Positions 1 through 64,000 of a stretch of DNA of 64,000 bases are shown in pieces; position 1 is the stretch's first letter, and the number at the start of each line of letters is the position of its first letter. The translations under genes were made by a program, and so were the position numbers. The notes below the pieces were generated by a model. It saw only the letters and a program-made list of their open reading frames with translations, had not been told where the DNA came from and made no database searches. This DNA comes from Dehalococcoidia bacterium. GTDB taxonomy: Bacteria > Chloroflexota > Dehalococcoidia > SM23-28-2 > RBG-16-64-32. The DNA lies in the NCBI GenBank assembly GCA_030649945.1, contig JAUSFE010000050.1:1859-65858 (forward strand), in the 5' to 3' direction.

Positions 1-388
1 GCCGGGTGCCCTCACCCCAGATACCTACGGCATCGCCTGCTTCGCGACCAAGTCTTGTGCCGCGCTCCAGTCCCGCCGCGACGCGGCGAGCCCCATGCAG
101 GGCCATGTAGCCAGTACTTATCCGGTCGAACAACCCACCGGGTATGAACTGAGCGACCTCGTGGCGAACGGAGGCCCAAGTGTCCGAGGAGAAGTCCGCA
201 CCGACGACTCTCCCAGCCTTACGTACTAGCGCAGCTGCAAGCACGTTCTGGCGGAGTTCGGAGGCTAACGCTCTGACGCAACCTATCCTCGTCCGCTCGA
301 CGCGTCTGCGCTCGATCTCAAGCGCTCCCACAAACCCGCCGACAACACCCAACAAAGCCGAACCAAACGCAATGGTGGCCGTGTCCAT
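1..388 (-). CDS. partial CDS (N-terminal part; gene continues past the window start) of a hypothetical membrane-anchored protein
   Basis: Manual minus-strand translation from ATG (complement 386-388): MDTATIAFGSALLGVVGGFVGALEIERRRVERTRIGCVRALASELRQ...; hydrophobic N-terminus. Its ATG overlaps the hspR stop (TGATG). Absent from the ORF track because it is truncated by the window edge. Confidence 0.35.
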   Translation of the reverse strand, partial: MDTATIAFGSALLGVVGGFVGALEIERRRVERTRIGCVRALASELRQNVLAAALVRKAGRVVGADFSSDTWASVRHEVAQFIPGGLFDRISTGYMALHGARRVAAGLERGTRLGREAGDAVGIWGEGTR

Positions 389-738
389 CAGTCTGTCTCC
401 CTCCCTTTTACCGCCGGCAGCACGCGGTCGCGGTACGCCTGTAGCTCCGCGCGCAGGTGCGCCATCTCGCGCTCCATCTGGCGCAGGCGCTCGTTCATGC
501 GCATCACGACCTCGGCGCCGGCCAGGTTCAGGCCCAAGTCCTGCATCAGGCGCTGGATGTAGCGCAGACGGTCGACATCGGACTGCGAGTAGAGGCGGAC
601 GCGCCCGCGGGAGCGGCTGGGGCTGATGAGGCCCTGGCGCTCGTAATTGCGCAGGCTCTGGGCGTGCATGCCGACCATGCGGGCGGCCACGCTGATGACG
701 TAGCAGGGCTCGTGGTCCGGGTTGCGTTCGTCTACCAT
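388..738 (-). CDS. hspR: MerR-family heat-shock transcriptional repressor HspR
   Basis: 116 aa. N-terminal MerR HTH (YVISVAARMVGMHAQSLRNYERQGLISPSRSRGRVRLYSQSDVDRLRYIQRL). Lies immediately downstream of dnaJ on the same strand, the classic dnaJ-hspR arrangement. Confidence 0.85.
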   Translation of the reverse strand: MVDERNPDHEPCYVISVAARMVGMHAQSLRNYERQGLISPSRSRGRVRLYSQSDVDRLRYIQRLMQDLGLNLAGAEVVMRMNERLRQMEREMAHLRAELQAYRDRVLPAVKGRETD

Positions 739-1378
739 GTCACGTTACCGCCGGTGTTCCTGTTTGGCGCGCCGTCGTTCCGGGCCGAGGCGCCGTAGGG
801 GGCGCAGCACTCGGGTAACGTGGTCGCGCCGGGGGATGGCCGGCTCCCGATTGCTGAGGCGGCTGCAACCGTTGGGCTGGCGTGCTGCGCCCCTACGCCC
901 CGCCCTGCCCTGACGCCGCGCCATACACGCATCGCGGTTACGCCGGCTCGTTCGTTCATCATGTCACATTACCGCCGGTGTTCCTGTTTGGCGTGGCGTC
1001 GTTCCGGGGCGGGTCACCGTAGGGCGCAGCACGAGGGCCGCGACGGTCGCGCCGGCGGGCGGCTGGCTTCCGGTTGCTGAGGCGGCTGCAACCGTTAGGC
1101 TCGCGTGCTGCGCCCCTACGCCCCGCCCTGCCCTCACGCCGTGCCATACACGCATCGCGGTCATGCCGGCTCGTTCGTTCATCATGTCACATTACCGCCG
1201 GTGTTCCTGTTTGGCGTGGCGTCGTTCCGCGGCGGGTCACCGTAGGGCGCAGCACGAGGGCCGCGCCGGGGGGGCTGGCTTCCGGTTGCTGAGGCGGCTG
1301 CAACCGTTAGGCTCGCGTGCTGCGCCCCTACGCCCCGCCCTGCCCTCACGCCGTGCCATACACGCATCGCGGTCATGC
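736..1378. repeat. tandem triplication (about 222 bp unit x3) between hspR and dnaJ. Each unit carries the hspR RBS/start region and a long REP-like inverted repeat (GTAGGGCGCAGCACG...CGTGCTGCGCCCCTAC)
   Basis: Units start near 736, 958 and 1181 with CATGTCAC(A/G)TTACCGCCGGTGTTCCTGTTTGGCG. Copies are more than 90% identical. The ORF-track hits 732..962, 964..1185 and 1182..1376 (MMNERAG...) are repeat-borne pseudo-starts. Confidence 0.85.
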
Positions 1379-2449
1379 CTTCGCTCCTGCGGGGGCCTTG
1401 CGGCGCTCCTCGCGTAGCTGCTCGAAGAGCGCGCGCTCGCGGTCCGACAGCTTTTCCGGGAGGACGACGCGGATGCGGGCGTAGAGGTCGCCGGACGGAC
1501 GGCCGCCCGCCGCGCGCGTCTGGGGCTGGGCGTGGCCCCTGGGCTTGCCGTCCAGGCGGGGCATGCCGAGGCCGGCCAGGCGGATGCTGCGGCCGTTCTG
1601 GGTGAGGGGCGGGATGGTGACGGCGATGCGCTTGCCGGCCAGCGTCTCGATGTGCACCTCGCCGCCGAGGACGGCGTCCTCCAGCGGCACCGGCACGTCT
1701 GTGTAGAGGTCGTCGCCCCTGCGCTCGAAGCGCGGGTGCGGGCGCACGCGCACGACGACGTAGAGGTCGCCGCGGGGGCCGGCCCTTCCAGGAGAAGGAC
1801 TGCCCTCGCCGGCCAGGCGCACGCGGGTGCCGTCACGGGCGCCGCGGGGGATGTTTACCTCCAGACGGCGGGGGCGCAGGACGGCGCCCTGTCCCTGGCA
1901 GACGTGGCAGACGGCGCCGGCCACCTGGCCGCTGCCGCCGCAAGTTGGGCACGGCTCCTCGCCCTGGAGCTCCAGGGCGCGGGCGGCGCCGTGGTGGGCC
2001 TCCTCGAGGGTGATCTCGGCGGCATACTCCACGTTCTGGCCGCGCAGGGGCCCGCGGCGGCCGACGGACGGGCGGCCGCCGCTCCCGGCGAAGACGTTGC
2101 CGAAGATGCTCTCGAAGCCACCGGCGCCGGCGCGGCCGACGAGGTCGCCGAGGTCGTTCAGGTTGAACTGGAAGGTCTGCCCTCCGCCTGAGGCGGACTG
2201 GGCGCGCGCCTTCTCGAAGGCCTCAGCCTGCTCCCAGCGCTCGCCGTAGCGGTCGTACTTGGCGCGCTTCTGGGCGTCGGAGAGCACCTCGTAGGCGCGG
2301 GTGATGGCCTTGAAGCGGGCTTCCGCGCCCTTGTCGCCCGGGTTGACGTCCGGGTGATGCTTGCGGGCGAGCTTGCGGTACGCCTGCTTGACCTCCTTGT
2401 CGGAGGCGCTGCGCTTGAGGCCGAGAATCTCGTAGTAGTCTTTCGCCAT
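1373..2449 (-). CDS. dnaJ: molecular chaperone DnaJ
   Basis: 358 aa. J-domain with HPD motif ([37 protein letters not shown]), G/F-rich linker, and CxxCxGxG zinc-finger repeats ([16 protein letters not shown]). Confidence 0.9.
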
Positions 2450-3305: not shown

Positions 3306-3420
3306 GGCCACGTTAGCGGGGCGGACACACGGATCCGCCCCTACGACCGGGCGGGCGCGGGCGGACACACGGGTCCGCCCCTACGACGGGCGGGCGCGGG
3401 CGGACACGCGGGTCCGCCCC
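3306..3420. terminator. three tandem copies of an about 39-bp GC-rich hairpin unit (GGGCGGACACACGGATCCGCCCCTACGAC) between convergent genes; likely bidirectional terminator array
   Basis: Direct tandem repeats seen in the sequence. Each unit forms the stem GGGCGGA...TCCGCCC. Lies between the DUF1326 stop (3305) and the GH15 stop (3420). Confidence 0.5.
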
Positions 3421-5237
3421 TACGCCGTGATGACCTTGCCCAGCTCGACGCTCTTGAGGGCGCGGTCAAGGTTCCTCGCGGTGTGGATGAGCGCTATGTG
3501 GGTGAACGCCTGCGGGTAGTTCCCCAGGTAATCGCCGGTCTCCGGGTCCAGCATCTCGGAGTAGAGGCCCACGTGGTTGCCCAGGCTGAGGACGCGCTCG
3601 AAGAGGTCGCGCGCCTCCTGCAGGCGTCCGGCGGCCACCAGGCTCCCGGCCAGCCAGAGGCTGCACATGGTGAAGGTGCCCTCGCGGCCCGGCAGCCCAT
3701 CGTCGGCGAGCTCGGGGAGGTAGCGATAGACGAGGCCGTCCACGCCAAGCTCCTTCCACACGGCGTCTATCGTCGCGTTCATGCGCGGGTCGTCAGCAGC
3801 CAGGAAGCCGACCATGGGGATGAAGAGCAGGCTGGCGTCCAGGCCGACGCCGCCGTAGTGCTGAATGAAGGAGCCGCGCTTGGCGTTCCAGCCGTGGGTC
3901 AGAATGTCCTGGCGGATCTCCTCGCGGGCCTTGCGCCAGCCGTCGAAGTCCACCGGCCGGCGCAGCGCTCGGGCCAGCCGCAGGCCGCGGTCCACTGCCA
4001 CCCAGGCCATGAGCTTGGAGTAGGTGAAGTGGCGGGGCCCCGTGCGGAACTCCCAGATGCCCAGGTCCGGTTCCCGCCAGCGGCGGACGGCGGCCTCCAC
4101 CAGGCAGCGCGCCACGTTCCACAGCCTCTCGTCGATGGCGCCGCCGACCCGCTGGTAGGAGTCCAGCGCCAGCATGATCTCGCCGAAGACGTCCAGCTGG
4201 AACTGATGGAAGGCGGCGTTGCCCACGCGTACCGGCCGCGAGGCGCGGTACCCCTCCAGGTGGTCAAGGGTATACTCCTCCAGCTCGTGGCCGTTCCGCC
4301 CCTCGATGCTGTACAGCGAGTGCAGGTCGCCGTTGCTCTCGCAGATCGCCAGGTTGGCGAGCCAGTCAACGAAGGGCTTGGTGTAGGTGGTGTGGCCCAG
4401 GCGGTGGAAGACGTCCATGGTGAAGGCGGCGTCGCGCAGCCAGGAGAAGCGGTAGTCCCAGTTGCGCACGCCGCCGATGCGCTCCGGCAGCGACGTGGTG
4501 ACGGCGGCGCAGACGGTGCCCGAGGGGACGTACAGGAGCAGGTGCAGCGCCAGCATGGAGCGCTTCACCACCTGCTCCCAGCGTCCGGTATAACGCCAGT
4601 CCTGCGAGACGAAGCGCCAGAACGCCTCCGTCTGGCCCAGGCGGCCGTGGACGTCGTAGCCGTCAACCGGCGGCGGCGAGTCCTGCCCCCACGCGACCAC
4701 GAACGCGGCCGATTCGCCCTGCCGTACCGTGAACCGCGCGCGGGCGGCGCCTTCCGCGGCCTCCAGATCGACCGCGGACGACAGCGAAAGGCAGCTGCGG
4801 CCGTGACGGGCCACGGCCACGCGGCTTTGAACGGAGACCTCCGTGCGGCCGCGGGCGTAGTCCAGGCGCGGCTGGAAGTGCAGGTCCATCTCCACGGCGC
4901 CCCGCTCGCAGCGCAGGAGGCGGATGAGGCTGCTTTCGCGCTGAGTGATCTGCTCGCCGACGGGCATGAAGTCGGTAAGCGTGGCGCCGCCGGAGGGGGT
5001 CTCGAACTCCGTGACCAGGACGTTGCTGTCAGGCAGGTAGCGCTGGCGGGACGTGAAGTCTCCGGGCGGGCTGACCTGGAAACGCCCGCCGGCGCCGTCG
5101 TCCAGAATGGCGGCGAAGACGCTGGGAGAATCGAAGCGCGGGAAGCACAGCCAGTCGATGGAGGCGTCAGAGCCGACGAGCGCGGCGGAATGCATATCGC
5201 CGATCACGCCGTAATCGTTAATACGCTTATACGCCAT
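3420..5237 (-). CDS. glycoside hydrolase family 15 protein (glucoamylase / trehalase-like)
   Basis: Typical GH15 N-terminus from the internal Met (MAYKRINDYGVIGDMHSAALVGSDASIDWLCFPRFDSPSVFAA). (alpha/alpha)6-barrel region motifs (WEFRTGPRHFTYSKLMAWVA). The ORF-track start at 5333 is probably a 5' extension. Confidence 0.85.
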   Translation of the reverse strand: MAYKRINDYGVIGDMHSAALVGSDASIDWLCFPRFDSPSVFAAILDDGAGGRFQVSPPGDFTSRQRYLPDSNVLVTEFETPSGGATLTDFMPVGEQITQRESSLIRLLRCERGAVEMDLHFQPRLDYARGRTEVSVQSRVAVARHGRSCLSLSSAVDLEAAEGAARARFTVRQGESAAFVVAWGQDSPPPVDGYDVHGRLGQTEAFWRFVSQDWRYTGRWEQVVKRSMLALHLLLYVPSGTVCAAVTTSLPERIGGVRNWDYRFSWLRDAAFTMDVFHRLGHTTYTKPFVDWLANLAICESNGDLHSLYSIEGRNGHELEEYTLDHLEGYRASRPVRVGNAAFHQFQLDVFGEIMLALDSYQRVGGAIDERLWNVARCLVEAAVRRWREPDLGIWEFRTGPRHFTYSKLMAWVAVDRGLRLARALRRPVDFDGWRKAREEIRQDILTHGWNAKRGSFIQHYGGVGLDASLLFIPMVGFLAADDPRMNATIDAVWKELGVDGLVYRYLPELADDGLPGREGTFTMCSLWLAGSLVAAGRLQEARDLFERVLSLGNHVGLYSEMLDPETGDYLGNYPQAFTHIALIHTARNLDRALKSVELGKVITA

Positions 5238-5365: not shown

Positions 5366-6448
5366 ATGATCGGGAAAGTGGAAACTGGAATGTGGGGCAT
5401 AGCCGGCAACGAAAGGGCCGTAGCGGCGGTGGCGCGGGCCGTGGCGGACGGCTCCTGTGCGCATGCCTACCTGTTCGTGGGCCCGGAGCGTGTTGGCAAG
5501 GCGGCCACGGCGGGCAGGCTGGCGCAGGCGGTAAACTGCGTGGGTGCCGCCGTTCCCTGCCTCGACTGCCGCGCCTGTACGCGCATTGGCAACGGGATAC
5601 ATGCCGATGTGCAGACGGTGACGGTGGAGCCGGGGGAAGACGGCGCGCAGCGCACGGCCATCAGCGTGGAGCAGGTGCGCGAGATTGAGCGGGCGGTGGC
5701 CCTCAACCCCTTCGAGGGGAAGACCCGCGTGGTGATCCTGGACCCGGCGGACGAGATGTCGCCGCAGGCCCAGAACGCCTTTTTGAAGACGCTGGAAGAG
5801 CCGCCGCCGCACGTCATATTCGTGCTCATCGCCCGGCGGGAGGAGCGGCTGCTGGAGACGGTGCGCTCCCGCTGCCGGCGCATCGGCTTCAGCCTGGCGC
5901 CGGTGGCGGTGATCGAGCGGGTGCTGCTGGAGAGGGAGGCGCCGCCGGAGCAGGCGCGGCTGCTGGCCAGGCTCTCGCGGGGGCGCGCCGGCTGGGCGCT
6001 GGAGATGGCGAGCGACGCCCAGGCGGCCGGGCGCCGGCGGGAGGCGCTGGAGTCCGCGCGCGCCCTGGCGCGCATGACGGTGGCGCAGCGCCTGGACCTG
6101 GCGGAGCGGCTCTCGGATGACTTCAAGCGGGACCGGGAGGGCGTGTTAACGCTGCTGGCGCAGTGGCAGGACTGGTGGCGGGACGTGCTGCTGACCGGGT
6201 GCGGAGCGGAAGAGGGCATGGCGAACCTGGACATGGCGGAGGAGCTGCGGGAGGACGCCGCCCGGCACGGCGCGCGGGAGGCGGCGGCGTTCGTGCAGGC
6301 GCTGCGGGAGGCGCGGCAGCAGCTGGAGGAGAACGTGCAATCACGCGTGGCGCTGGAGGCGCTGGTGCTGCAGGCACCGACGGCGGCCCTGCCTGCCGGA
6401 CAGGCAGGCCCGGGCGCGGCGGTGGCGGCGGAGTTGTCCACTTCTTAG
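5366..6448 (+). CDS. holB: DNA polymerase III subunit delta-prime
   Basis: AAA+ clamp-loader motifs: HAYLFVGPERVGKAATA, the zinc module CLDCRACTRIGNGIHADV, Walker B VVILDPADEMS, sensor SRC. Start taken at MIGKVETG; the ORF-track start at 5327 is also possible. Confidence 0.8.
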   Translation: MIGKVETGMWGIAGNERAVAAVARAVADGSCAHAYLFVGPERVGKAATAGRLAQAVNCVGAAVPCLDCRACTRIGNGIHADVQTVTVEPGEDGAQRTAISVEQVREIERAVALNPFEGKTRVVILDPADEMSPQAQNAFLKTLEEPPPHVIFVLIARREERLLETVRSRCRRIGFSLAPVAVIERVLLEREAPPEQARLLARLSRGRAGWALEMASDAQAAGRRREALESARALARMTVAQRLDLAERLSDDFKRDREGVLTLLAQWQDWWRDVLLTGCGAEEGMANLDMAEELREDAARHGAREAAAFVQALREARQQLEENVQSRVALEALVLQAPTAALPAGQAGPGAAVAAELSTS

Positions 6449-6665
6449 CAGGGTGCTGACAAACGAGTTCTCGTCCCCCCCCCCACCTCCATCCCCGAGC
6501 GGCGCCCCTACGGCGGCCCGTGTTCAGCCCGACGCGGATGTTCGTGCGACGGGTGGCGCTGAGGGCGCGGCACCCCCCGCCCTACCCCCATCCCCGAGCG
6601 GCGCCCCTACGCCGTGGTTCCAGGACAGGCCTCTGCACTCTCCTTATTTCAGCACGCTGTTAGTC
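6446..6665. mobile_element. MITE-like element (about 215 bp) bounded by terminal inverted repeats TTAGCAGGGTGCTGACAAACGAG ... TTTCAGCACGCTGTTAG, with nested family-R8 sequence
   Basis: The same TIR family recurs at 20661, 50467-50500, 51735-51770 and 60172..60305 (complete copy). The interior contains CCCCGAGCGGCGCCCCTAC repeats also found at 25490-25560. Confidence 0.5.
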
Positions 6666-8833: not shown

Positions 8834-9014
8834 GGAGGGGAGTCCGCCGGGCGGTGACGATGCGAATGAGGAATCCGGTGGTTGAGCGGGCCCTGGGTGC
8901 TCATCAGAAGCCGCGCCCCCGGCAGAGTCCCGGCACGCATACGAACGCGGCTCCCTTGTTCCCGGACAGACCCTTCGATTCCTCAGGGTGACATTGTCCT
9001 CAGGGTGACAATCA

Positions 9015-9929
9015 ATGGCTGACGAGCGCTTCTTCCCGGCCGGCAACTTCGCGGCGCTGTCCGCTGAGTACAGCGCCTACGAGCGGTCGCGCGTCGTCAT
9101 CCTGCCCGTGCCGTATGACTCCACCGCCTCCGGCTGGGTAGGCTCGCGCGAGGGCCCGGCGGCCATCATCGCCGCCTCCGCCAACATGGAGCTGTACGAC
9201 ATCGGCCTGCCTACCCTGCCTACCGGCAGGCAGGCCGGACAGGCAGGCACCGGGGCCGAGCCGTACCTCGCCGGCATCCACACCCTGCCGGAGGTGGCCG
9301 TGCACACCGGCAACCCGCAGGGGATGGTGGAGCGCATCGAGGAGATCGTGGGCGAGCTGATCGACGCCGGGAAGTTCGTGGTCACGCTCGGCGGCGAGCA
9401 CACGGTGGCCGTGGGCGCGGCCAGGGCCCACGCCAGGCGCATCCCGGCCCTCTCCGTGCTGGCCTTTGACGCCCACGCGGACATGCGGGACACGTACCTG
9501 GACTCGCCCTACAACCACGCCTGCACGCTGCGCCGTATCTCGGAGGTCGCGCCGATCGTCCAGGTGGGGCTGCGCAGCGCCGAGCGCGAGGAGCACGAGT
9601 ACATCCGCGAGCAGGGCCTGCGTTTCTACGGCCCGCGGGAGTACCGGGCGCTGGGGCCGGAGGGCGTGGCGGAGCAGCTATCGGACAGCGTGTACGTGAC
9701 GTTCGACCTGGACGCCTTCGACTCGTCGGTCGTGGCGGCGGTGGGGACGCCGGAGCCGGGCGGGCTGCTCTGGGACGAGGTGAGCGAGCTGCTGGAGACG
9801 GTCGCCCGGCGGCGGCGCCTCGTGGGGTTCGACGTGACGGAGCTGGCGCCCTCGCTGGGCCCGCGGGCGAACGCGCAACTGGCGGCCAAGCTGGCGTACC
9901 GCATCATCGGCCTGGCGCTGCGGGAGTAA
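9015..9929 (+). CDS. speB: agmatinase (arginase/ureohydrolase family)
   Basis: Mn-binding motifs LGGEHTVAVG, DAHADMRD and SFDLDAFD(S). Co-located with speH and the DHS-like gene. Confidence 0.85.
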   Translation: MADERFFPAGNFAALSAEYSAYERSRVVILPVPYDSTASGWVGSREGPAAIIAASANMELYDIGLPTLPTGRQAGQAGTGAEPYLAGIHTLPEVAVHTGNPQGMVERIEEIVGELIDAGKFVVTLGGEHTVAVGAARAHARRIPALSVLAFDAHADMRDTYLDSPYNHACTLRRISEVAPIVQVGLRSAEREEHEYIREQGLRFYGPREYRALGPEGVAEQLSDSVYVTFDLDAFDSSVVAAVGTPEPGGLLWDEVSELLETVARRRRLVGFDVTELAPSLGPRANAQLAAKLAYRIIGLALRE

Positions 9930-9939
9930 GGGGGCGCCC

Positions 9940-10416
9940 TTACGCCACAGCCGCCCGCACGTCCAGCATCTGCGCCAGGTGCGCGCGGGCGTGCTCGACC
10001 TCCATCTCGGCCCGGCTGCGCACCGTCACCGGGCCGCTTTCCGGGTGCACGCCGGAGCGCTCCCACGCCTCGTCCGGCAGGTGCTCCAGCTGGTAAGCCA
10101 GGCCTGCCAAGAACGCGCGCAACCCCGTGAGCGCCTTCTGCGGGTCTTCCCCCTGGTAGTTGCGTTCCACGGCCCACGCGTCCTGGTCGTAGGACACAAG
10201 GGTGGGGTTGTCGTCCTCCACCAGGCGACGGACCCGCAACCCCTCCTCGGCGGCGGAGTCCCGCAGGTGGCAGACGATCTCCAGGAGCGACCACTCTCCC
10301 TCCGCCTGAGGCGGACGGCGCAGCTGGTCGTTGCTCAGGCCCCGGCAGGCGGCCTCGACGTCGTCCGGCGCCTGTCGCAGGAGGGTGATGATCTCGGTGC
10401 GGTGCATGGGTGGCAT
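9940..10416 (-). CDS. DinB/YfiT-like four-helix-bundle family protein
   Basis: 158 aa; the pattern LSNDQLRRPPQAEGEWSLLEIVCHLRDSAAEE...EVEHARAHLAQM is a DinB_2-like His-containing helical bundle. Confidence 0.6.
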   Translation of the reverse strand: MPPMHRTEIITLLRQAPDDVEAACRGLSNDQLRRPPQAEGEWSLLEIVCHLRDSAAEEGLRVRRLVEDDNPTLVSYDQDAWAVERNYQGEDPQKALTGLRAFLAGLAYQLEHLPDEAWERSGVHPESGPVTVRSRAEMEVEHARAHLAQMLDVRAAVA

Positions 10417-16555: not shown

Positions 16556-19792
<3,237 letters not shown>

Positions 19793-38243: not shown

Positions 38244-38245
38244 CC

Positions 38246-49284: not shown

Positions 49285-49289
49285 GGTGG

Positions 49290-50027: not shown

Positions 50028-50029
50028 GG

Positions 50030-51630: not shown

Positions 51631-51767
51631 GTCCGCCGGTAACCACTAAGGCACGAAGACACAAAGGCTTCTCTTGTGCTCCAGTGCTGTATGTCTGCAA
51701 GCTTGGTGCCTTTGTGTCTTCGTGGTCCCCGGAAAAAGGCCCCCTCATTCCTTATTTCAGCACCCTG

Positions 51768-53636
51768 TTAGGGCGCGGCCACGCTGTCGGGGGCGGGGAA
51801 GTCCGGGTCCGCGAAGAGCGTGAAGGCGCTGTCTGCGTAGACCTCCCGGAAGCCGAGGACGGTGCGGATGTAGCCGTCCAGCCGCTTCAGCTCCTCGCCG
51901 CCCACCAGCCAGCCGTGCGGCGTCACGTAGTGCAGGGCCACGTACTTGATGCGGTACTTGAGGAACGTCTCCTGCACAAGCGCGGCGTTCAGGTCGTCGG
52001 CGTCCGGGCGGGCGGGGCAGAGGGCCGGGCAAGCCAGGTACTTGATCCCCGGCGGCGTGTCCACCCAGAAGAGCGTCTCGTTGGGCGCGCGGGAGATGTA
52101 TCCGCCCAGGGAGGGCTTCTGGTAGATGCGCTGATAGTAGTCGGCCATGATGGCGCCCGCCTGCGTGCCGCCCAGCGTCCAGGTAGAGCGGCCGAGGGGA
52201 GCGTCCAGGACGGCGAAATCACCCGCTTCGCGGCTGATGGCGACGAGCGCCGCCGGCGTTTCCAGCCTGGCGGTCACCTGGGGTGGGTTCCAGTACTCCA
52301 CGGCGACAAACGCGAAAAGGAGGACAGCCGCCAGGGGCACGAGCTTCAGGTAGTGTCCTCGCAGCCACGAGAGGATGGCGGCGGCGCCCATGGCCGCCAG
52401 TATGCTGAGGGCCAGGTACCCGAAGACAATCAGGCGGGCGATGCCCCGGCGCTCCTTGATCAGCGGTATCTTCTCGTATAGCTGGTAGGGCATGGGGACG
52501 GTGAAGTGGAGGCCCAGGAGTGAGAAATCCTTGTTGTCGCCCAGGTAGAGGTGCGGGCCCATGGCCAGGGAGACGAAGAACAGGAGGACGGCGGCCCAGA
52601 ACACCTGGACGTGCGAGAGGCGACGCACCTGGGCCAGCGCCACCGCGGCCAGGAGGAGCGGCGTAATCCCCAGGTAGACGGTGTTCTCGATGTCGCCGGT
52701 GGGGAAGTGCTGCAAGGAGCCGAGGTCCCACGTGGGCACCTTCCCGGGGCCCCAGAGGGGGCTGGGCGTGAAGAGGGCGCCCAGGTCGCTGGACATGGAC
52801 TCCGAGGCCACGGGCATGCTCACCTCATTGCGGCGGATGCTGATGAGGGCGGGCACGAGGAGCGGCCCGCCGACCACGAAGAGCGCCGCGACGGCGATGG
52901 GCACCACGCGCCAGAGCGGGAGCAGGCGCGGCCACTCGCGGGCCCTGGCGTAGACGAGCGACCAGTAGAGGAGGAAGAGACCCAGGAACATCCCGGCGTC
53001 CACGGCGTATTCCAGGTTGGTGTAGGCGATGATGGCCCAGGCGGCGCCGGCGGCGGCGGCGTCCCACCAGCGGCCGCGCTCCTGGAAGCGGAAGAGGAAG
53101 AGGGCGAACACCGGCAGCGGCCACACGGTGGCGATGTTCCAGTGGCCGTGGAAGCGCATGACGACGAAGGGGGCGAAGGCGAAGATGAAGCCCGCGATGA
53201 GCGAGGCGGCATCGTTCTTCGTGAAGCGGTACGCCAGGGCGTAGGTGGCCACCCCGGAAGCGGCGAAGAGCAGCAGGCCCAGGATGTTCCAGGAAAGGAT
53301 GATGTTGCCGGTGAGCAGTTGCAGGGGGATGGAGAGGACGGCGTCCACCGTGTTCAGCGTGTGCAGGTAGAGATCGGCGCCCTGGGGGTAGAAGAGCAGG
53401 TCCGTGTGGAAGGGGTTGGAGAAGCTGAAGAGGGCGTGCTTCACCCACCAGAGGTTCCAGAGGTTCATCCAGGAGTCCTCCGGGCGCACGGGCCAGTAGC
53501 TCAGGCTGTTTCCGGCGTGCAGGACCAGTGGCCACGTCTGAATGACGGCCCAGAGCAGGAAGAAGGCGGCGACCAGGACCCAGCGCAGAAGCTGAGCGGG
53601 CGGCGCCGGCAGCCGTTGCGGCAGACGCGCGATCAT
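51768..53636 (-). CDS. large polytopic membrane protein, GT-C-type glycosyltransferase-like (YfhO/ArnT-like)
   Basis: 622 aa, at least 12 predicted TM helices in the N-terminal two thirds plus a C-terminal soluble domain; exact family not assignable. Confidence 0.6.
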   Translation of the reverse strand: MIARLPQRLPAPPAQLLRWVLVAAFFLLWAVIQTWPLVLHAGNSLSYWPVRPEDSWMNLWNLWWVKHALFSFSNPFHTDLLFYPQGADLYLHTLNTVDAVLSIPLQLLTGNIILSWNILGLLLFAASGVATYALAYRFTKNDAASLIAGFIFAFAPFVVMRFHGHWNIATVWPLPVFALFLFRFQERGRWWDAAAAGAAWAIIAYTNLEYAVDAGMFLGLFLLYWSLVYARAREWPRLLPLWRVVPIAVAALFVVGGPLLVPALISIRRNEVSMPVASESMSSDLGALFTPSPLWGPGKVPTWDLGSLQHFPTGDIENTVYLGITPLLLAAVALAQVRRLSHVQVFWAAVLLFFVSLAMGPHLYLGDNKDFSLLGLHFTVPMPYQLYEKIPLIKERRGIARLIVFGYLALSILAAMGAAAILSWLRGHYLKLVPLAAVLLFAFVAVEYWNPPQVTARLETPAALVAISREAGDFAVLDAPLGRSTWTLGGTQAGAIMADYYQRIYQKPSLGGYISRAPNETLFWVDTPPGIKYLACPALCPARPDADDLNAALVQETFLKYRIKYVALHYVTPHGWLVGGEELKRLDGYIRTVLGFREVYADSAFTLFADPDFPAPDSVAAP

Positions 53637-53804
53637 TCGTCAGTTGGCCTGGTGCTCAGATTCCGGGCGGGCGCCATGGGTTCTCCCGATAATACACTCC
53701 GGGTCCGGCGAAGCGCCACGGCGTGTGCGCAGGGCCCGGTCGCCCTTGTCAGGGTACGCACGCTGACGTAAGTTAGACGTGTCCCCAGATATAAGGAGCG
53801 GTAG

Positions 53805-54236
53805 ATGCCGAAGGAAGTTACGTTCGAAAAGGCACTGGAACGGGCCAGGCGCATGTCCGAGCGCTACGTGGAGAAGGGCGCCTACGAGTTCTTCCCGCTG
53901 CCCGATATCGTGGATGAGGTCCAGCGCGGCCTGGCCAAGAACCTGGTGACGCACGGGCACCTGTATTGCCCCTGAATGACGCTCTCCGGCGATCCTGATG
54001 AGGATCGCAAGAAGATCTGCCCGTGTGAGCGGCACCACGAAGACATTGCGCGGGACGGGTTCTGCATCTGAATGTTCTTCGTGAGCGAAGAGTATCTTCG
54101 CCGGTACCAGGAGACGGGGGACGTGGGCGCCAGCACGCTGGGCGAGGTGACCCCGCTGGGGGAATCGCTCTTCCCGGCGGAGAAGGACGCGGAGCACCTG
54201 CCGAAGTCCCAGCGCGGGCCCAGAGCCCGGGCGTAG
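53805..54236 (+). CDS. candidate selenoprotein: ferredoxin-thioredoxin reductase catalytic-subunit (FtrC)-like protein with two in-frame UGA (Sec) codons at 53973-53975 and 54069-54071
   Basis: RBS AAGGAG 6 nt upstream of the ATG. Read-through translation: MPKEVTFEKALERARRMSERYVEKGAYEFFPLPDIVDEVQRGLAKNLVTHGHLYCP-U-MTLSGDPDEDRKKICPCERHHEDIARDGFCI-U-MFFVSEEY...RA. This reproduces the FtrC CPC...CPC...CHC-MLF motif with U at the two redox-active Cys positions. Hairpins GCGATCCT-GAUG-AGGATCGC (13 nt after UGA1) and CGAAGA-GUA-UCUUCG (15 nt after UGA2). Absent from the ORF track because the UGAs split it into pieces of less than 60 aa. Confidence 0.5.
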
Positions 54237-54710
54237 AGACGCCCCGGCGGGGCGTCTCAGGCGCTCGTAGTGGGTACGCCGCGCTGTCTGCCCTGCGCCC
54301 CGACCACCTGGCTTCACCTCCCCACCGCCCCAGATTCCTTCGCGAAGCTACGTGTCAGCCGCGCTCAGGCGCCATCTCGCTCAGAATGACAGGGTGCGTT
54401 CGCACGGCGCTCATTACCCGCGCAGCAGCGGTGGTAGAGACGCCCCGCCGGGGCGTCTCAGGCGCTCGTCGTGGGTACGGCGCGCCGTCTGCCCTGCGCC
54501 ACGGCCGCCTGGCTTCACCTCCCCACCGCCCCAGATTCCCCTTCGGCTGCGCTCAGGGCAGGCTTCGCGAAGATGCGCCTTCGCTCCGAAGGATGTCGAT
54601 ACCGCTCAGAATGACAGATCGTGCGTCGCGGCGCCGCCGCCGGGTGCGGTGAGGCCGGCGCTCAGAACGACGAAGGCCGCCGGGAGGGCGGCCTTCGCCC
54701 GGTTGTCAGC
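54237..54710. repeat. about 200-bp tandem duplication (units starting near 54233 and 54432) carrying the perfect hairpin GAGACGCCCCGGCGGGGCGTCTC and R4 motifs. The second unit has a nested R5 insertion (CTTCGGCTGCGCTCAGGGCAGG). Ends with the terminator hairpin AAGGCCGCC-GGGAG-GGCGGCCTT
   Basis: Direct repeats seen in the sequence, between the convergent FtrC-like and desulforedoxin genes. Confidence 0.7.
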
Positions 54711-59417: not shown

Positions 59418-59624
59418 GTCTTTGTCCTTAGTCCCTTCCTCTGCTTCGGTGGTACCCGCTGGGAGCTACGATTGTTTGCAAGCGCAATCTAGCACCGCGA
59501 CGGGGGTGTGTCAATACGCAGGAGGGGCGCTAGCGTTCGCCGCACGGAACTATTCGCTGGCAGTGGCTGTACTATTGGCAGGAGGATCGAATCCGTGTGG
59601 CCGGCAACTGTAATCCCGAGGGTG

Positions 59625-60173
59625 ATGCGACACAGCCTCTTCCTGGTGGCGATAATTGCGCCAATTACTGCCGGATGCGCTGGAGGTGGGGCCTTGAACA
59701 AAGCACCGGACCAATCGCCCTCTGGAACACCGGCGCTCACACGGATGGAACCGGCGGTGCGCCCATCTCCACCCCGGACATGCCCGGCTTCGACCGCCGA
59801 GCCGGTTCGGCCTGATGTCGCTCCAGGCCTCGGTGGTCCCGTCTGGATGATCACCGGCGTCTCATCCGTCCTGGAGTGGCATGGTCCGGACGCGTTGGAG
59901 AAAACTCTGTGGATTGTAGACGATGGCGTTAGCGGGACCGTCACGGTTACGGGTCGCCGTCTCGACGGCGACGGCGTCACCCTCTTCCAACGCTATGATG
60001 GTACTCGGCAGAATCGCGACACGCTGGTATTGGAGGGACCCCACGCGCGGCGAACCGACCATATCGGCTACGTCGTCTACTCAAGCCCGGGCTGCTGGCA
60101 ATTGACCACCCGCGCCAGCGATCAGACGCTGGAGGTCACAGTGTACCTGTTCGCCCCCGAGTCTGACCGTTAG
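59625..60173 (+). CDS. hypothetical lipoprotein
   Basis: MRHSLFLVAIIAPITAGCAGG lipobox; lower GC than surroundings; the ORF-track start at 59508 is an extension. Confidence 0.5.
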   Translation: MRHSLFLVAIIAPITAGCAGGGALNKAPDQSPSGTPALTRMEPAVRPSPPRTCPASTAEPVRPDVAPGLGGPVWMITGVSSVLEWHGPDALEKTLWIVDDGVSGTVTVTGRRLDGDGVTLFQRYDGTRQNRDTLVLEGPHARRTDHIGYVVYSSPGCWQLTTRASDQTLEVTVYLFAPESDR

Positions 60174-60305
60174 CAGGGTGCTGAAAAAGCGAGATCTCGC
60201 CCCACCCGCCACCCCACCCCAAGAGAAAGGCTAAATCTGGGGGACACCCCCAGACCCCCGTCAAAGGAGCTTCGCCCCTCTGTACTCCCCTTTTCTCAGC
60301 ACCCT
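60172..60305. mobile_element. complete about 135-bp MITE-like element with terminal inverted repeats GTTAGCAGGGTGCTGAAAAAG ... CTTTTCTCAGCACCCTGTTAG (family R2)
   Basis: Perfect 15-nt TIR cores; sits exactly between the lipoprotein stop and the purH stop. Confidence 0.65.
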
Positions 60306-60306
60306 G

Positions 60307-61917
60307 TTAGTGCCGGAAGGCCCGCGTGCCGGTGAAGACCATGGCCACGCCGTACTCGTTGCACACCGCCACCGCCTCCTCGTCACGGACGCCGCCGCCG
60401 GGCTGGATGACGGCGGTGACACCCGCCCGGCACGCCGCCTCGACGGCGTCGCCCCGCGCGAACGGGAAGAAGGCATCGGACGCGAGCACCGCGCCCTGCG
60501 CCCGCTCGCCGGCGCGCTCGATGGCCTGCTGCGTGGGCCAGAGGCGGTTGGGCTGGCCGGCGCCGATGCCGACGGCGGCCCCGTCGCGGGCGACGACGAT
60601 GGCGTTGGACCGGACGTGCTTGAGCGCGGTCCAGGCGAAGCGCAGGTCCGCCAGCTCGCCGGCCGTGGGGGCCCGCTTTGTGACCACGCGCAGCTCCAGT
60701 TCGTCCGCGCGGCGGGTGTCCCGCTGCTGGACGAGCATGCCACCGATGATGCTGCGGTATTCGAGCGCCGGGCTCCCGCGCTCCGCCTCCCCTTTGGACA
60801 GACCTGAAGGTGTGTCCCTACGGTTGCTCGCGGGCGCTGCTGCTCCTTCGATGAGCAGGATGCGCAGGTCGCGCCGTTTTCGCAAGCGCTCCAGGGCGGC
60901 GGCGTCGTAGGCCGGCGCGACGATGATGTCGTAACGCTTGCCCTTCATCGCCTCGGTCATGTCCCAGGTGACGGGGCGGTTGGCGGCGATGATGCCGCCG
61001 AAGGGCGAGACGGGATCGCAGTCATAGGCACGCTCGTAGGCGACGGCGATGTCGGCGTGGGAGGCGATGCCGCAGGGCGTGGCGTGCTTGACGATGACTA
61101 CCGTGGGGCCGGCGAACTCGGTGGCCGCGCGCCAGGCGGCGTCGGCGTCGAGGTAGTTCAGGTAGGACATCTCCAGGCCGTGCAGGCGCTCCGCCGCCAG
61201 CAACCCCGTGGCCGGCCCCGGGGCGTCTTCCCGGTAGAGCGCCGCCTTCTGGTGGGGGTTCTCGCCGTAGCGCAGCTCCGCCGCCTGCTGGAGGCCGACC
61301 GTGACCTGCGGCGGAAAGAGCGGCTCGCCCGCGCGCAGATACTGCGCGATGGCCGTGTCGTAAGCGGCGACGTGCTGGAAGGCCTTGGCGGCGAGGCCCC
61401 GGTGGTACTCCGCGTCATCGGGGCTGGGGCCCTGATCTACGGAAGCGCGCAGGTGGTCCAGGGCCTGCTCATAGTCGGCGGGGTCTACGACGACGAGGAC
61501 GGACGGGTGGTTCTTGGCGGCGGCGCGCAGCATGGCCGGCCCGCCGATATCGATGTTCTCCAGCGCCTCCTCGACCGTGACGCCGGGCCGGGCGATCGTT
61601 TCGCGGAAGGGGTAGAGATTGACGCAGACGAGGTCTATGGGCGGGATCTCGCTGCGGCGCAGCTCCTCCATGTGCTCCGGCTTGTCGCGCCGGGCCAGGA
61701 TGCCGCCGTGGACCATGGGATGCAGCGTCTTCACGCGGCCGTCCAGGATCTCCGGGAAGCCGGTGAGCGACGAGACCGAGTGGACGGGGAGGCCGGCCTC
61801 CTCCGCCAGGTAGCGCTGCGTGCCGCTGGTGGAGTAGATATCGAAGCCCAGCTCCGCCAGGCCGAAGGCGAACTCCTTGAGGCCGGTCTTATCGTAGGGC
61901 GCGAGGAGGGCGATCAT
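60307..61917 (-). CDS. purH: bifunctional AICAR transformylase / IMP cyclohydrolase PurH
   Basis: MGS-like N-terminal domain (MIALLAPYDKTGLKEF...), KTLHPMVHGGIL, C-terminal AICARFT domain; carries an about 20-aa in-frame insert (see repeat at 60775-60850); the ORF-track 5' extension to 62244 is rejected. Confidence 0.85.
   Translation of the reverse strand: MIALLAPYDKTGLKEFAFGLAELGFDIYSTSGTQRYLAEEAGLPVHSVSSLTGFPEILDGRVKTLHPMVHGGILARRDKPEHMEELRRSEIPPIDLVCVNLYPFRETIARPGVTVEEALENIDIGGPAMLRAAAKNHPSVLVVVDPADYEQALDHLRASVDQGPSPDDAEYHRGLAAKAFQHVAAYDTAIAQYLRAGEPLFPPQVTVGLQQAAELRYGENPHQKAALYREDAPGPATGLLAAERLHGLEMSYLNYLDADAAWRAATEFAGPTVVIVKHATPCGIASHADIAVAYERAYDCDPVSPFGGIIAANRPVTWDMTEAMKGKRYDIIVAPAYDAAALERLRKRRDLRILLIEGAAAPASNRRDTPSGLSKGEAERGSPALEYRSIIGGMLVQQRDTRRADELELRVVTKRAPTAGELADLRFAWTALKHVRSNAIVVARDGAAVGIGAGQPNRLWPTQQAIERAGERAQGAVLASDAFFPFARGDAVEAACRAGVTAVIQPGGGVRDEEAVAVCNEYGVAMVFTGTRAFRH
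60775..60850. mobile_element. family-R3-like repeat (GACCTGAAGGTGTGTCCCTACGG) inserted in-frame within purH
   Basis: Encodes the extra segment AAPASNRRDTPSGLSKGEAERGSPA, which is absent from canonical PurH. Motif matches the intergenic copies at 20950 and 46010. Confidence 0.55.
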
Positions 61918-62722: not shown

Positions 62723-63834
62723 TCTACTCCGTTGCCCTTCACCACCTCGCCGATCTTGCGCGCCTCTGGCAACTGCGACTGCACGCCGGCCGCGTCCGCC
62801 GGCGCCACGGCCAGGACGATGCCCACGCCCATGTTGAACGTGCGGAACATCTCCTCTTCGTCGATGCCCCCGTGCTCCTGGATCAACCTGAACAGCGCCG
62901 GCACACGCCAGGCTGAGCGGTCGATGTGCACGCCGAGGCCGGCGGGCAGGATGCGCGGGACGTTGCCGGGGATGCCGCCGCCGGTAATGTGGGCGATGCC
63001 TCTGATTGGAGGTTGGAGGTTGGAGGTTAGAGGTTGGAGGTTAGACCCTTCGGCTGCGCTCAGGGCAGGGGTTGGAGGTTGGAGCAGCGGGCGCAGGTCT
63101 GGCAGGTAGCAGCGGTGGGGCGCCAGGAGGGCGTCGCCGAGGCTGCCCTCCAGGCCCGGGAAGTTCGAGTTGAGGACGGCGCGCTCGGCCCCGGCGTCGC
63201 GGTCCAGGCCCACGCCGAAGACCTTGCGCACGAGCGAGTAGCCGTTGGTGTGCAGGCCCCTGGAGGGCAGCGCCAGGAGGACATCGCCCGCGCGGATGCG
63301 GGAACCGTCAATCACCGCGTCGCGCTCGACGACGCCGACGATGAAGCCAGCCAGGTCGAAGTCACCCTCGGCGTAGGTGCCGGGCATGTCCGCCGTCTCG
63401 CCGCCCAGGAGCGCGCAGCCGGCCTCGCGGCAGGCCTCCACGCAGCCGCGCACGAGGTCGGCCTTGGCGTCGTCGCTGAGGCCGCAGTTGCCGATGTAGT
63501 CCAGGAAGAAGAGGGGCTCCGCGCCGGCCGTCAGGATGTCGTTGACGCAGTGGTTGACGAGGTCGTGGCCGACGGTGTCGTAGCGGCCGAGCAGCGAGGC
63601 GAGCTTGACCTTGGTGCCCACGCTGTCCGTGCTGGCCACGAGGACCGGCTCGCGGTAGGCGCCGAGGCGGAAGAGGCCGGCGAAGGGGCCGACGTCCGCC
63701 AGCACCTCCGGCCGGCGCGCGCTCTTCGCCAGCTCCGCGATGCGCGAAACCAGCCGCTCGGCAGCGTCGATGTCCACGCCGGCGGCGGCGTAGGAAGGGC
63801 GCGGAGTCTCGGTCACGCGCGTATTATCCCGCAA
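62710..63834 (-). CDS. purM: phosphoribosylformylglycinamidine cyclo-ligase (AIR synthetase) PurM
   Basis: AIRS N- and C-domains (VASTDSVGTKVKLA, GHDLVNHCVNDIL, GYSLVRKV, IAHITGGG); contains an in-frame repeat insertion at about 63000-63070. Confidence 0.85.
   Translation of the reverse strand: MRDNTRVTETPRPSYAAAGVDIDAAERLVSRIAELAKSARRPEVLADVGPFAGLFRLGAYREPVLVASTDSVGTKVKLASLLGRYDTVGHDLVNHCVNDILTAGAEPLFFLDYIGNCGLSDDAKADLVRGCVEACREAGCALLGGETADMPGTYAEGDFDLAGFIVGVVERDAVIDGSRIRAGDVLLALPSRGLHTNGYSLVRKVFGVGLDRDAGAERAVLNSNFPGLEGSLGDALLAPHRCYLPDLRPLLQPPTPALSAAEGSNLQPLTSNLQPPIRGIAHITGGGIPGNVPRILPAGLGVHIDRSAWRVPALFRLIQEHGGIDEEEMFRTFNMGVGIVLAVAPADAAGVQSQLPEARKIGEVVKGNGVEWDT
63000..63070. mobile_element. 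family R6 + R5 repeat (GGTTGGAGGTTAGAGGTTGGAGGTTAGACC CTTCGGCTGCGCTCAGGGCAGG GGTTGGAGGTTGGAG) inserted in-frame within purM
   Basis: Encodes RPLLQPPTPALSAAEGSNLQPLTSNLQPP between the conserved LAPHRCYLPDL and IAHITGGG; same motifs occur intergenically at 44950 and 54540. Confidence 0.6.
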
Positions 63835-63872
63835 ACGGCGCGCGCTGCGACAGGGCCCGCCGGCGAAGGCCG

Positions 63873-64000
63873 TTATCTGTGTCCGTTACCCGTCGGTGCG
63901 ATGTTCTGGTTCATGCGGAAGAAGTTTGTCGGGTCGTACTTGTTCTTCAGGTCCACCATCGTCTGGTAGTGACTCCCGAAGCTTTCGCGTACGCGCTGGT
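63873..64000 (-). CDS. partial CDS (C-terminal end; gene continues beyond the window): FAD-linked oxidase, BBE-like C-terminal domain
   Basis: Manual translation: ...QRVRESFGSHYQTMVDLKNKYDPTNFFRMNQNIAPTGNGHR*, which is the berberine-bridge-enzyme C-terminal signature. Confidence 0.5.
   Translation of the reverse strand, partial: QRVRESFGSHYQTMVDLKNKYDPTNFFRMNQNIAPTGNGHR

Follow-up and report, generated by a model that had tools for sequence, protein, structure and literature searches.

Several types of small non-autonomous repeats are known from bacterial genomes. The best described are the GTAG-tagged repetitive extragenic palindromes (REPs), together with SMAG-type repeats and the REPIN–RAYT systems, in which RAYT stands for REP-associated tyrosine transposase (Nunvar 2010, PMC2817692; Di Nocera 2013, PMC3733652; Bertels & Rainey 2011, PMC3116915). 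GTAG-tagged REPs have been recorded in eight phyla, Chloroflexi being one (T. roseum GTAG-23); they form clusters with flanking DNA, favour convergent and unidirectional spacers, supply TAG stop codons and lie in some cases within open reading frames (ORFs), tRNA synthetase genes among them (PMC3733652). CGTC-tagged REPs, including Neisseria dRS3 and the Rickettsia palindromic elements (RPEs) RPE-4 and RPE-6, consist of a CGTC, TGTC or CCTC tag, an AT-starting stem of 8–9 bp, a loop of 4–5 nt and a short unpaired tail with the consensus CCA (PMC3733652). Miniature transposable elements with inverted repeats (MITEs) derived from the IS5 group form a further type, YTAR being the target-duplication motif of IS5 (PMC10359306), and cyanobacteria carry short tandemly repeated repetitive (STRR) sequences in their spacers (PMC2670836). 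Here, we analysed a window of 64,000 nt from a Dehalococcoidia bacterium (contig JAUSFE010000050.1, positions 1,859 to 65,858), in which a preliminary description had recognised at least eight families of short dispersed palindromic or MITE-like repeats, R1 to R8. We read the window, with a probability of roughly 0.7, as part of an ordinary chromosome, from an uncultured Chloroflexota, that was colonised by four kinds of small non-autonomous repeats, which were then filtered by selection. GTAG and CGTC REPs, the donation of TAG stops and intragenic REPs have already been described (PMC3733652), and the elements reported here are a new set of known kinds.

Expected motif counts were obtained from dinucleotide-preserving shuffles of the window, which yielded about 0 matches for every motif. 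Compared to this expectation, each of the eight motifs is strongly over-represented, and the recurrence is borne out at almost all coordinates listed for them. As separate families, however, the eight collapse into four kinds. GTAG-tagged REP palindromes (R1, R3, the GTAG-AGACGCCCC type and the end of R8) make up the first; TGTC-tagged, CGTC-REP-like elements found on one strand only (R4, about 65–91 nt; R5, 24 nt) the second; a true MITE (R2) with a 15-nt terminal inverted repeat (TIR) and a TTAG target duplication, often with R7 hairpins attached, the third; and STRR-like tandem arrays of heptamers or octamers (R6 and others) the fourth. Several listed families proved to be parts of one element (R3 with R5, R7 with R3, R8 within R2). 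The nesting noted earlier was confirmed, as R5 lies within an R4 copy, an R3 loop and a heptamer array, and R8 within an R2 MITE. The repeats are also not confined to the window: relatives of R1, R4, R5 and R7 are present in the related metagenomic genomes L122, L123, L125, L133, L137 and L202.

The label ‘palindromic/MITE-like’ fits in so far as the elements are short, multi-copy and mostly hairpin-forming or MITE-like, but R4, R5 and R8 fold like shuffles. At the G+C content of the window, background folding energies are already very negative; structure prediction for each unit gave significant z-scores for long R1 (−6.6), R2 (−4.6), R7 (−4.5), R3 (−3.5) and the inverted repeat of a heptamer array (−6.3), but not for R4, R5 and R8. 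Could the repeats simply be assembly or binning artefacts, or chance G+C-rich palindromes? The source is a metagenome-assembled genome (MAG) and its high G+C content (68%) inflates short palindromes; this explanation is nevertheless effectively refuted by the shuffles, by frames that remain open through intragenic copies and by relatives from other samples that carry the same families. In addition, contig L001 of the independent Logan assembly is 100% identical over 51697–54149 (2,453 nt), a stretch including an R2 end and part of R7, within which the contig terminates, and the window sequence is therefore not an assembly artefact.

Coverage and stop-codon counts are based on a gene map of 67 predicted genes derived from codon usage. 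That the repeats ‘fill most intergenic spacers’ was an overstatement: a member of R1–R8 is contained in 22 of the 45 spacers of at least 30 nt (about 25 with later finds at 8955, 30971 and 33206), and R1–R8 account for 20% of the intergenic DNA (10.2 kb in total), a share that rises to 30% if whole composite units are counted. All convergent spacers are occupied (7/7), compared to 13/30 unidirectional and 2/8 divergent ones. Neither are the repeats purely intergenic, as at least six copies lie in-frame within genes, namely in the isoleucyl-tRNA synthetase gene (IleRS, three copies), PurM, PurH and one cyclase paralog, and the frames stay open through all of them.

GTAG-tagged REPs amount to about 20 copies in 64 kb with stems of 8–14 bp; a GTAG followed by a stem-loop was matched 26 times (2.9 in shuffles). 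R1 is built as GTAGGGGCG – inner sequence – CGCCCCTAC; GTAGGGGCG-N10-CGCCCCTAC has 3 exact copies (0.00 expected) and CGCCCCTAC alone 16 exact matches in the window. Perfect R1 palindromes of 26–28 nt start at 17222, 19843, 23521, 36745, 41025 and 43253, and the same arms enclose long loops at 795–896, with two tandem duplicates, and at 40678–40747, with 18-bp arms. The IleRS copy of R1, folded as DNA, gave a z-score of −4.8. R3 represents a second stem type (GTAGGGAGGTACC...GGTACCTCCCTAC at 45975–46028; 3 copies, 0 expected), and a third type, GTAG+AGACGCCCC-GGC-GGGGCGTCT at 54233 and 54434, has the classic unpaired tag and is present in the relative L122. R8 is a 77-nt unit ending in GCGCCCCTAC (3 copies, 0.16 expected). 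The R3 copy claimed at 60790 has no match at up to three mismatches, but a diverged GTAG hairpin with compensatory stem changes does lie at 60796–60821.

Like the described GTAG-tagged REPs, the elements of the window have a GTAG head, a G+C-rich stem of 7–14 bp and a short loop; they form clusters and tandem groups that take in flanking DNA, lie nested within other palindromes, are found preferentially in convergent and unidirectional spacers, provide stop codons with the TAG of their head and occur within genes including one for a tRNA synthetase. Unlike the classic form with its unpaired tag, many are perfect palindromes tagged on both strands, most GTAG tags being paired with CTAC. Long-loop derivatives (70–100 nt) and the recurrence of the same outer arms with a covarying core across many phyla are further differences. 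The latter emerged from a scan of species-representative genomes for the two 9-nt R1 arms separated by any filler of 4–30 nt. Among the matches listed, the lineages comprise many Chloroflexota, Cyanobacteria, Bacteroidota, Desulfobacterota, Clostridia, Binatia and others; fillers of ten nt are perfect palindromes in 62 of 84 cases and have at least four of five positions paired in 80 of 84, while the 44 distinct fillers use all four Watson–Crick pairs at each position. The search had left the filler free; it is the hairpin and not the inner sequence that is kept. The copies are as follows.

795–896, 1019–1119 and 1242–1331, unstranded: long-loop R1 GTAG REPs, one per unit of a 223-nt triplication
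3318–3423, minus strand: three tandem GTAG REPs (GTAGGGGCGGACCCGYGTGTCCGCCC) between the convergent DUF1326 and GH15 genes, the last contributing the GH15 stop
9926–9943, unstranded: 18-nt palindrome GTAAGGGGGCGCCCTTAC of the GTAA...TTAC type between convergent genes
17222–17249, unstranded: perfect 28-nt R1 palindrome in IleRS, encoding VGALREAPL
18785–18811, plus strand: R1-like GTAG hairpin GTAGGGGCCGTTCGCGAACGGCCC in IleRS, encoding VGAVRERP
19843–19868, unstranded: R1 palindrome GTAGGGCGCAGCATGCTGCGCCCTAC, 51 nt 3' of the IleRS stop
22565–22588, minus strand: R1 copy at the end of an MBL-fold gene
23521–23547, unstranded: R1 palindrome at the end of a GNAT gene
25476–25552, plus strand: 77-nt R8 unit ending in GCGCCCCTAC, no significant fold
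36745–36771, unstranded: R1 palindrome 5' of cyclase paralog 1; a promoter-like site comes next, at 36812
40678–40747, unstranded: long-loop R1 element with 18-bp arms, in-frame in cyclase paralog 3
41025–41052, unstranded: R1 palindrome at the end of cyclase paralog 3, terminator-like
43187–43209, 43219–43241 and 43253–43280, unstranded: R1 cluster, 22 nt past the groEL stop
45975–46028, unstranded: R3 GTAG palindrome GTAGGGAGGCAC...GGTACCTCCCTAC whose loop contains a 24-nt R5-type unit
54233–54673, plus strand: 201-nt tandem units, each a GTAG REP (54233, 54434) plus an R4 copy
60796–60821, minus strand: diverged R3-type GTAG hairpin GTAGGGACACACCTTCAGGTCTGTCC in the variable linker of PurH, R3 architecture with both arms changed

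At 725–1379, the whole dnaJ–hspR(MerR) spacer is tandemly triplicated (223 nt × 3), each unit including the first hspR codons and the last dnaJ bases; in L122 (18750–19060), the start region of dnaJ is duplicated in an analogous way (163 nt), accompanied by R4 copies. Three additional hairpins, outside the earlier list, were found at 30971–31004, 33206–33241 and 31425–31470; they include a GTAG-tagged hairpin with a 13-bp stem, GGCCAAGCATCCC-TGAGCGCCC-GGGGATGCTTGGCC between two genes of one operon, and a 46-nt GTAG...CTAC palindrome within a histidine-phosphatase ORF.

The intragenic copies parallel the intragenic REPs and Rickettsia RPEs discussed in PMC3733652. The IleRS loop holding the palindrome at 17222 is shorter in the T. 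thermophilus enzyme. In the L123 ortholog (1144–1172) the palindrome is identical in 28 of 28 positions, the genes being 78% identical and the loop flanks diverged much more; at the same site, L125 carries a different REP (GTAGGGGCGTCCTTCGCAGGAAGGACGCCCCTAC) and L122 another again, and the L123 gene has an additional R1 palindrome elsewhere. In cyclase paralog 3, the long R1 encodes part of a 32-aa insertion that is missing in the three other paralogs.

The repeats had also been proposed to mark cassette boundaries around a toxin–antitoxin (TA) module and the cyclase array. For the former this does not hold: the module is bounded by a 94-nt direct repeat (27237–27330 and 27930–28023, 84% identity) and not by R1–R8. 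This repeat corresponds to the 3' end of the upstream M16 peptidase gene and encloses a small antitoxin-like ORF and a MazF/PemK toxin (27380–27926), an arrangement that resembles what a cassette integrating at the M16 3' end would leave behind. The cyclase array does have R1 copies 5' of paralog 1 and 3' of the array, but others lie between paralogs 3 and 4 and inside paralog 3. Paralogs 1 and 4 share a homologous R1 copy and promoter-like site on their 5' side, so the REP was duplicated together with its gene; these R1 copies travel with the duplicated unit rather than delimit a cassette, and the boundary idea holds only loosely. The four tandem alpha/beta-hydrolase plus adenylate/guanylate cyclase paralogs (36822–42535) are 44–64% identical, with nearly identical C-terminal stretches of about 40 residues.

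For R4 and R5, the CGTC-tagged REPs are the nearest described system. On the minus strand, R4 reads CTGTC-ATTCT-GA-GCG...(~35–40 nt)...CGC-GA-AGGAAT-CTGG. Its left-end string as typed in the preliminary description matches nothing, but the element itself is real: the right end is present in 2 exact and further degenerate copies, and conserved termini flanking a variable centre of about 30–40 nt are common to the window, L122 and L202. On the minus strand, TGTC-ATTCT.. or TGTC-ACCCT.. is present in R4 and the copy at 8955; in R5, the tag is degenerate (CCTG/CTGC). R4 shares with CGTC REPs the tag, here in the accepted variant TGTC, a stem that opens with AT and the lack of an associated transposase. 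It also has a short tail, CTGG in the copies of the window, L122 and L202, which may correspond to the CGTC tail with its consensus CCA. In contrast to CGTC REPs, the R4 loop spans about 35–40 nt instead of 4–5 nt and a GA-rich internal loop interrupts the stem, which comprises only 4–5 bp plus 3 bp; R5 measures only 24 nt and its tag is degenerate. With its long loop and without a significant fold, R4 is not filed here as a CGTC REP but called CGTC-like; the likeness of R4, R5 and R8 to REPs lies in their termini only. A reading of R4 and R5 as stable hairpins was rejected, as their folding is no better than that of shuffles.

A tag motif, CTCAGRRYGACR, was found exclusively on the G-rich strand, with 8/0 matches in the window, 7/0 in L122 and 2/0 in L202, independent of the direction of flanking genes. 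Such a strict single-strand orientation was not found described for CGTC REPs in PMC3733652. Across the window, G+C ranges from 65 to 74% and 30 of its 32 two-kb bins have a positive GC skew. In L122, a relative in synteny with the window (IleRS 74% identical), there are four two-ended R4 copies and seven tag-motif matches in 23 kb; its dnaJ–hspR spacer carries an R4 copy where the window has long R1. L202 carries two R4 copies.

The unit R5, CCCTTCGGCTGCGCTCAGGGCAGG, measures 24 nt, has a GC-GNA-GC mini-hairpin at its core and is present in 2 exact copies and as variants at 45986 and 18971; of all insertions in the window, it is documented best. It resembles a short canonical form belonging to the same class, GACCCTTCGNTTCGCTCAGGGTGAC, found at 8955–8996 and in L006, L050 and L188. 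Four filled sites each have an empty counterpart, and no target duplication is visible at any of them. Similar to the Rickettsia RPEs, R5 and R4-type units insert in-frame into housekeeping genes. Filled sites and other elements of this kind are listed below.

18971–18994, minus strand: R5 in IleRS, codon-aligned, encoding PALGGAEG; empty in 12 of 12 aligned relatives, where RRRFWK is directly followed by SE..
63046–63069: R5 in the PurM heptamer array (PALSAAEG), orientation and frame relative to the coding strand as in IleRS; empty in P0003, P0005, P0016 and P0025 with QPPTSNLQPP
54539–54562: R5 in an R4 copy; empty in the sister R4 of the neighbouring 201-nt tandem unit (111-nt aligned stretch, 92% identical)
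45975: R5-type unit in the R3 loop; empty in the R3 copies at 20812 and 20959
8955–9010, plus strand: short CGTC/TGTC-type element, reverse complement TGTCACCCTGAGGAATCGAAGGGTC, then a partial duplicate
15777–15843, plus strand: R4 copy CCCCAGATCCCTTCGCGAAG...CGCTCAGGATGACGG in the divergent rpmH/IleRS spacer
54326–54392 and 54527–54617, plus strand: R4 copies of the 201-nt tandem region, with a degenerate R4 end at 54640–54673

One might argue that R4, and perhaps R5, are not mobile DNA at all and instead constitute a small RNA gene family or protein-binding modules kept on the leading strand for expression. The conserved termini around a variable centre shared with L122 and L202 would fit, as would the location of all copies on one strand and a 10-nt palindrome in the left end of R4, CTTCGCGAAG, as a putative dimer binding site. 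Still, we regard this as very improbable: neither an Rfam match, even at E ≤ 5, nor a significant fold was obtained, no promoter-like or terminator-like sites are listed with R4, and clean insertions of R5 in two essential ORFs and in other repeats are unlike a gene or operator. R5 could be an active mobile 24-nt unit of the same class as R4 and the widespread ‘...CTTCG..GCTCAGRRTGACA’ repeats, one that transposes into a single strand at the replication fork, leaves no target duplication and uses an enzyme not yet linked to CGTC-type REPs; being eight codons long, it might find a place even within essential genes, IleRS and PurM for example. We put this forward as a rather doubtful proposal; if true, the lineage would be a tractable system to find the long-missing mobilisation machinery of CGTC REPs and RPEs.

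R2 is defined by a TIR of about 15 nt (CAGGGTGCTGARAAA), found at 7 ends (0.15 expected), which pair in the predicted fold. TTAG as part of the TIR was rejected, as these flanks are direct and not inverted repeats. Resemblance to bacterial MITEs derived from the IS5 group (PMC10359306) lies in the length of 133–211 bp without an ORF, the imperfect TIRs, the direct TTAG duplications and an empty site in relatives: purH ends ...CAC TAG without the element in L202 and L203, while the window reads CAC TAA, then CAGGG...CCCTG, then CTAA. TTAG fits YTAR, a fit that alone is insufficient for membership in the IS5 group. Unlike a simple MITE of this group, R2 has distinct subterminal sequences at its A-end and B-end, and three ends are solo or joined to R7. 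The R2 TIR may resemble the IS5 inverted repeat. R7 has 6 copies (0 expected), and an R7-like hairpin 3' of purH in L202 demonstrates that it is not confined to this genome. R2 and R7 occur as follows.

6449–6659, plus strand: complete R2 MITE of 211 nt, direct TTAG at 6445–6448 and 6660–6663, R8 segments at 6475–6511 and 6534–6610
60174–60306, plus strand: complete R2 MITE of 133 nt, direct TTAG at 60170–60173 and 60307–60310, the entire convergent spacer
20661–20981, plus strand: R2 A-end with CTAG flank and a tandem block of two 147-nt units, each an R7 hairpin plus a long-loop R3 GTAG hairpin
50076–50499, unstranded: composite with an R7 half (50076–50118) and R4-like partials (50120–50156, 50368–50404)
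50463–50495, within this composite: reverse R2 A-end, flank ATAG
51642–51726, plus strand: R7 hairpin with a 17-bp stem, then an R2 B-end with TTAG flank, to 51771

R6 forms tandem arrays and is not a dispersed unit. Its motif gave 8 overlapping matches at 2 loci, and Tandem Repeats Finder (TRF) revealed heptamer, octamer or similar short-period arrays at about 10 spacer loci. By analogy only, these resemble cyanobacterial STRR sequences (PMC2670836): 7-nt units are arranged in tandem in spacers, and in some cases an inverted copy pairs into a hairpin between co-transcribed genes, groES–groEL here and hupS–hupL there. Differences are the other phylum, the units (GGTTGGA, GGGTCAA, CACTGTC, CAGGTGT, CGGGAAG), which probably differ from the cyanobacterial STRR1–3 sequences, and the translation of one array in PurM, where it is conserved with concerted unit change in relatives. 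The PurM array encodes a 21-aa insertion, QPPTPALSAAEGSNLQPLTSNLQPP; a shorter array (QPPTSNLQPP) is kept in relatives of about 77% identity, the units of L203 are all GGTCGGA, and in P0099 and P0119 the same loop holds REP-like peptides such as VGAPLAAPSRSGALREAPL. The loops of IleRS and PurM are recurrent landing sites for different repeat types in different lineages. The arrays are located as follows.

44953–45020, unstranded: R6 GGTTGGA array plus inverted copy, hairpin in the groES–groEL spacer, z −6.3
49288–49392, unstranded: GGGTCAA × 8 plus CACTGTC × 6, filling the 101-nt spacer 49285–49385
63004–63085, plus strand: R6 GGTTGGA array in-frame in PurM, R5 nested at 63046–63069
16459, 45492, 47361, 47421, 50040 and 62374: other arrays

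A perfect CIRCE-type inverted repeat, TTAGCACTC-N9-GAGTGCTAA, lies 5' of groES (45415–45441); it adjoins a ATGGAGCA octamer array, which makes its own hairpin.

Ten of the 67 stop codons in the window lie within the terminus of a repeat, five as TAG of a GTAG head and five as TAR of an R2 flank, and the R2 flank is a stop codon in all cases but one.

TAG from GTAG heads: GH15 gene (3420–3422), MBL-fold gene (22585–22587), GNAT gene (23544–23546), cyclase paralog 3 (41026–41028) and FTR (ferredoxin-thioredoxin reductase)-like gene (54234)
R2 flanks: holB (TAG), ORF 59508–60173 (TAG), a helix-turn-helix (HTH)/PASTA gene (TAG), purH (TAA) and a DUF6311 gene (TAA, 51768–51770)

The arms of the palindrome at 9926–9943 give the TAA stops of both convergent genes. 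Overall, the 67 genes use TAG 32 times, TGA 24 times and TAA 11 times. TAG as the commonest stop is unusual for a genome of 68% G+C; TAG donated by repeats explains only part of it.

Copies that abut stop codons, together with the full occupancy of convergent spacers, raise the question of whether the hairpins are functional elements of transcript 3' ends, either Rho-independent terminators or 3' stabilisers kept by selection; the preliminary description had likewise suggested a terminator role. Two R1 copies with T-rich tails and terminator-like scores, one after cyclase paralog 3 (41025, plus strand) and one after groEL (43281, minus strand; unit 43253–43280), would agree with this, and E. 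coli REPs have been proposed to influence mRNA decay and termination (PMC3733652). However, these two are the only copies that qualify: a U-tract is present in only 2 of about 20 GTAG hairpins, and a consensus scan returned 32 terminator-like sites where about 24 are expected, i.e. no enrichment. The R4/R5 bias follows the DNA strand and not transcription. Since repeats also lie within operons (dnaJ–hspR, groES–groEL) and ORFs, since the orthologous spacers of L122 and L202 contain other elements or are free of them, and since Rfam gave no match, a general terminator role is disfavoured, and we consider this explanation unlikely. The Rfam scan had 0 matches at the gathering threshold; at E ≤ 5 it returned a T-box leader and noise only, none of them a repeat.

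How, then, could colonisation followed by selection have produced the observed pattern? GTAG REPs would most probably be mobilised in trans, as single-stranded hairpins, the enzyme being an HUH tyrosine transposase of the RAYT type with its gene elsewhere in the genome. R4 and R5 may insert into single-stranded DNA at the replication fork, as suggested by a tag that lies on one strand whatever the direction of transcription and by R5 insertion without target duplication. R2 would be moved by cut-and-paste by an IS5-group DDE transposase; it would land on stop codons because YTAR sites in a genome of 68% G+C are presumably mostly stop codons, and the TTAG duplication would preserve the stop codon at the insertion site. 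Heptamer and octamer arrays probably grow by replication slippage. Selection would filter these insertions, so that harmless ones persist past 3' ends, especially convergent ones, within each other's loops, or in surface loops of proteins if their length is a multiple of 3 and no stop is in frame. Most copies are probably neutral or selfish, and a few 3' hairpins may stabilise or end transcripts.

Several results weigh against this explanation. About 1 Mb of sequence from relatives yielded no copy of R2, R3, R8 or a dispersed R6 unit, nor was an autonomous parent insertion sequence with R2 TIRs found in the window or in these loci. Among the about 33 of 67 window ORFs scanned, there was neither a RAYT (Y1 HUH transposase) nor an IS5-like or other transposase. 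A screen for HUH motifs near R1-type palindromes in 120 foreign loci yielded one ordinary IS200-like TnpA, 456 nt from a palindrome; RAYTs being single-copy, this screen says little either way. Three of the seven R2 ends are solo (20665, 50482, 51754), all of them next to R7 hairpins. R4 folds gave z-scores of −0.2 to +1.4, and the test of R4, R5 and 8955–9010 together ranged from −0.5 to +1.8, none of them significant. Finally, the 28/28 identity of the IleRS palindrome in L123 hints at a constraint at the sequence level that a purely selfish model does not predict; possible causes are selection acting on the hairpin, as DNA or as RNA, gene conversion by other copies, and an insertion that took place independently.

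The observations are useful but incremental, as the general phenomena have already been described. For annotation, they imply that gene callers, ortholog alignments and MAG assemblers are affected in this lineage, contigs breaking at R7 for example, and that at least four housekeeping or paralogous genes have repeat-encoded peptide insertions. For biology, they provide pairs of filled and empty sites both for the 24-nt R5 and for the R2 MITE with its TTAG duplication; they show that CGTC-like repeats, a type without known transposase, keep strictly to one DNA strand; and they show protein loops (IleRS residues ~222–232, the inter-domain loop of PurM) that are repeatedly occupied by different repeat types in different lineages. 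What is of interest beyond the known is R5 with its four filled/empty pairs, the restriction of CGTC-like elements to one strand, the heptamer array translated in PurM and the perfectly conserved IleRS palindrome. A full-text literature search with the raw motifs GTAGGGGCG/CGCCCCTAC and GTCATTCTGAG returned unrelated primer matches only.

The housekeeping content of the window includes dnaJ, a MerR/HspR-like gene, holB, an rpmH–rnpA–yidD operon, IleRS with a T-box leader, groES, groEL, purH and purM; a cytochrome b/Rieske cluster, the MazF/PemK module and the four alpha/beta-hydrolase plus cyclase paralogs are further genes. The T-box leader (16157–16424, plus strand) lies 5' of IleRS and scores 74 bits (E 6e-16), below the Rfam gathering score of 93, and was thus missed by the default scan; an orthologous leader is present in L122. 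In the divergent rpmH/IleRS spacer, a 50-nt unit occurs in two copies (15621–15670 and 15945–15994) on either side of the R4 copy, each with two TTCA-loop hairpins (CACACCCTTCAGGGTGTG, CCGCAGCCTTCAGGCTGCGG) and without an Rfam match. Weak matches to CRISPR direct repeats (DRs) at 31401 and 44532 were rejected as CRISPR-like, being single sites within ORFs with E-values of 0.27–4.8.

The segment 59418–60173 (about 760 nt), which holds ORF 59508–60173, is missing from the syntenic purH–cytochrome b interval of L202 and L203; the ORF (221 aa) has no Pfam match, a lower G+C content and a weak coding score, and a promoter-like TTGAC-N17-TAGATT beside the segment is kept in the window, L202 and L203. 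An operator-like repeat, TTTTACAYTACGTTAACCGGCGTTAAC, with GTTAAC palindromes is found at 30138–30176, 30777–30815 and about 32100–32125, 5' of an mgsA-like gene, the histidine-phosphatase gene and the next operon. At 53805–54236 (plus strand), three successive ORFs are split by two in-frame TGA codons (LYCP*M, FCI*M). With both read as Cys, the translation contains a complete FeThRed_B domain (catalytic chain of ferredoxin-thioredoxin reductase; E 8e-20, residues 11–101), which covers both TGA codons at usual Cys positions, and the product may be a two-selenocysteine protein or the region a pseudogene.

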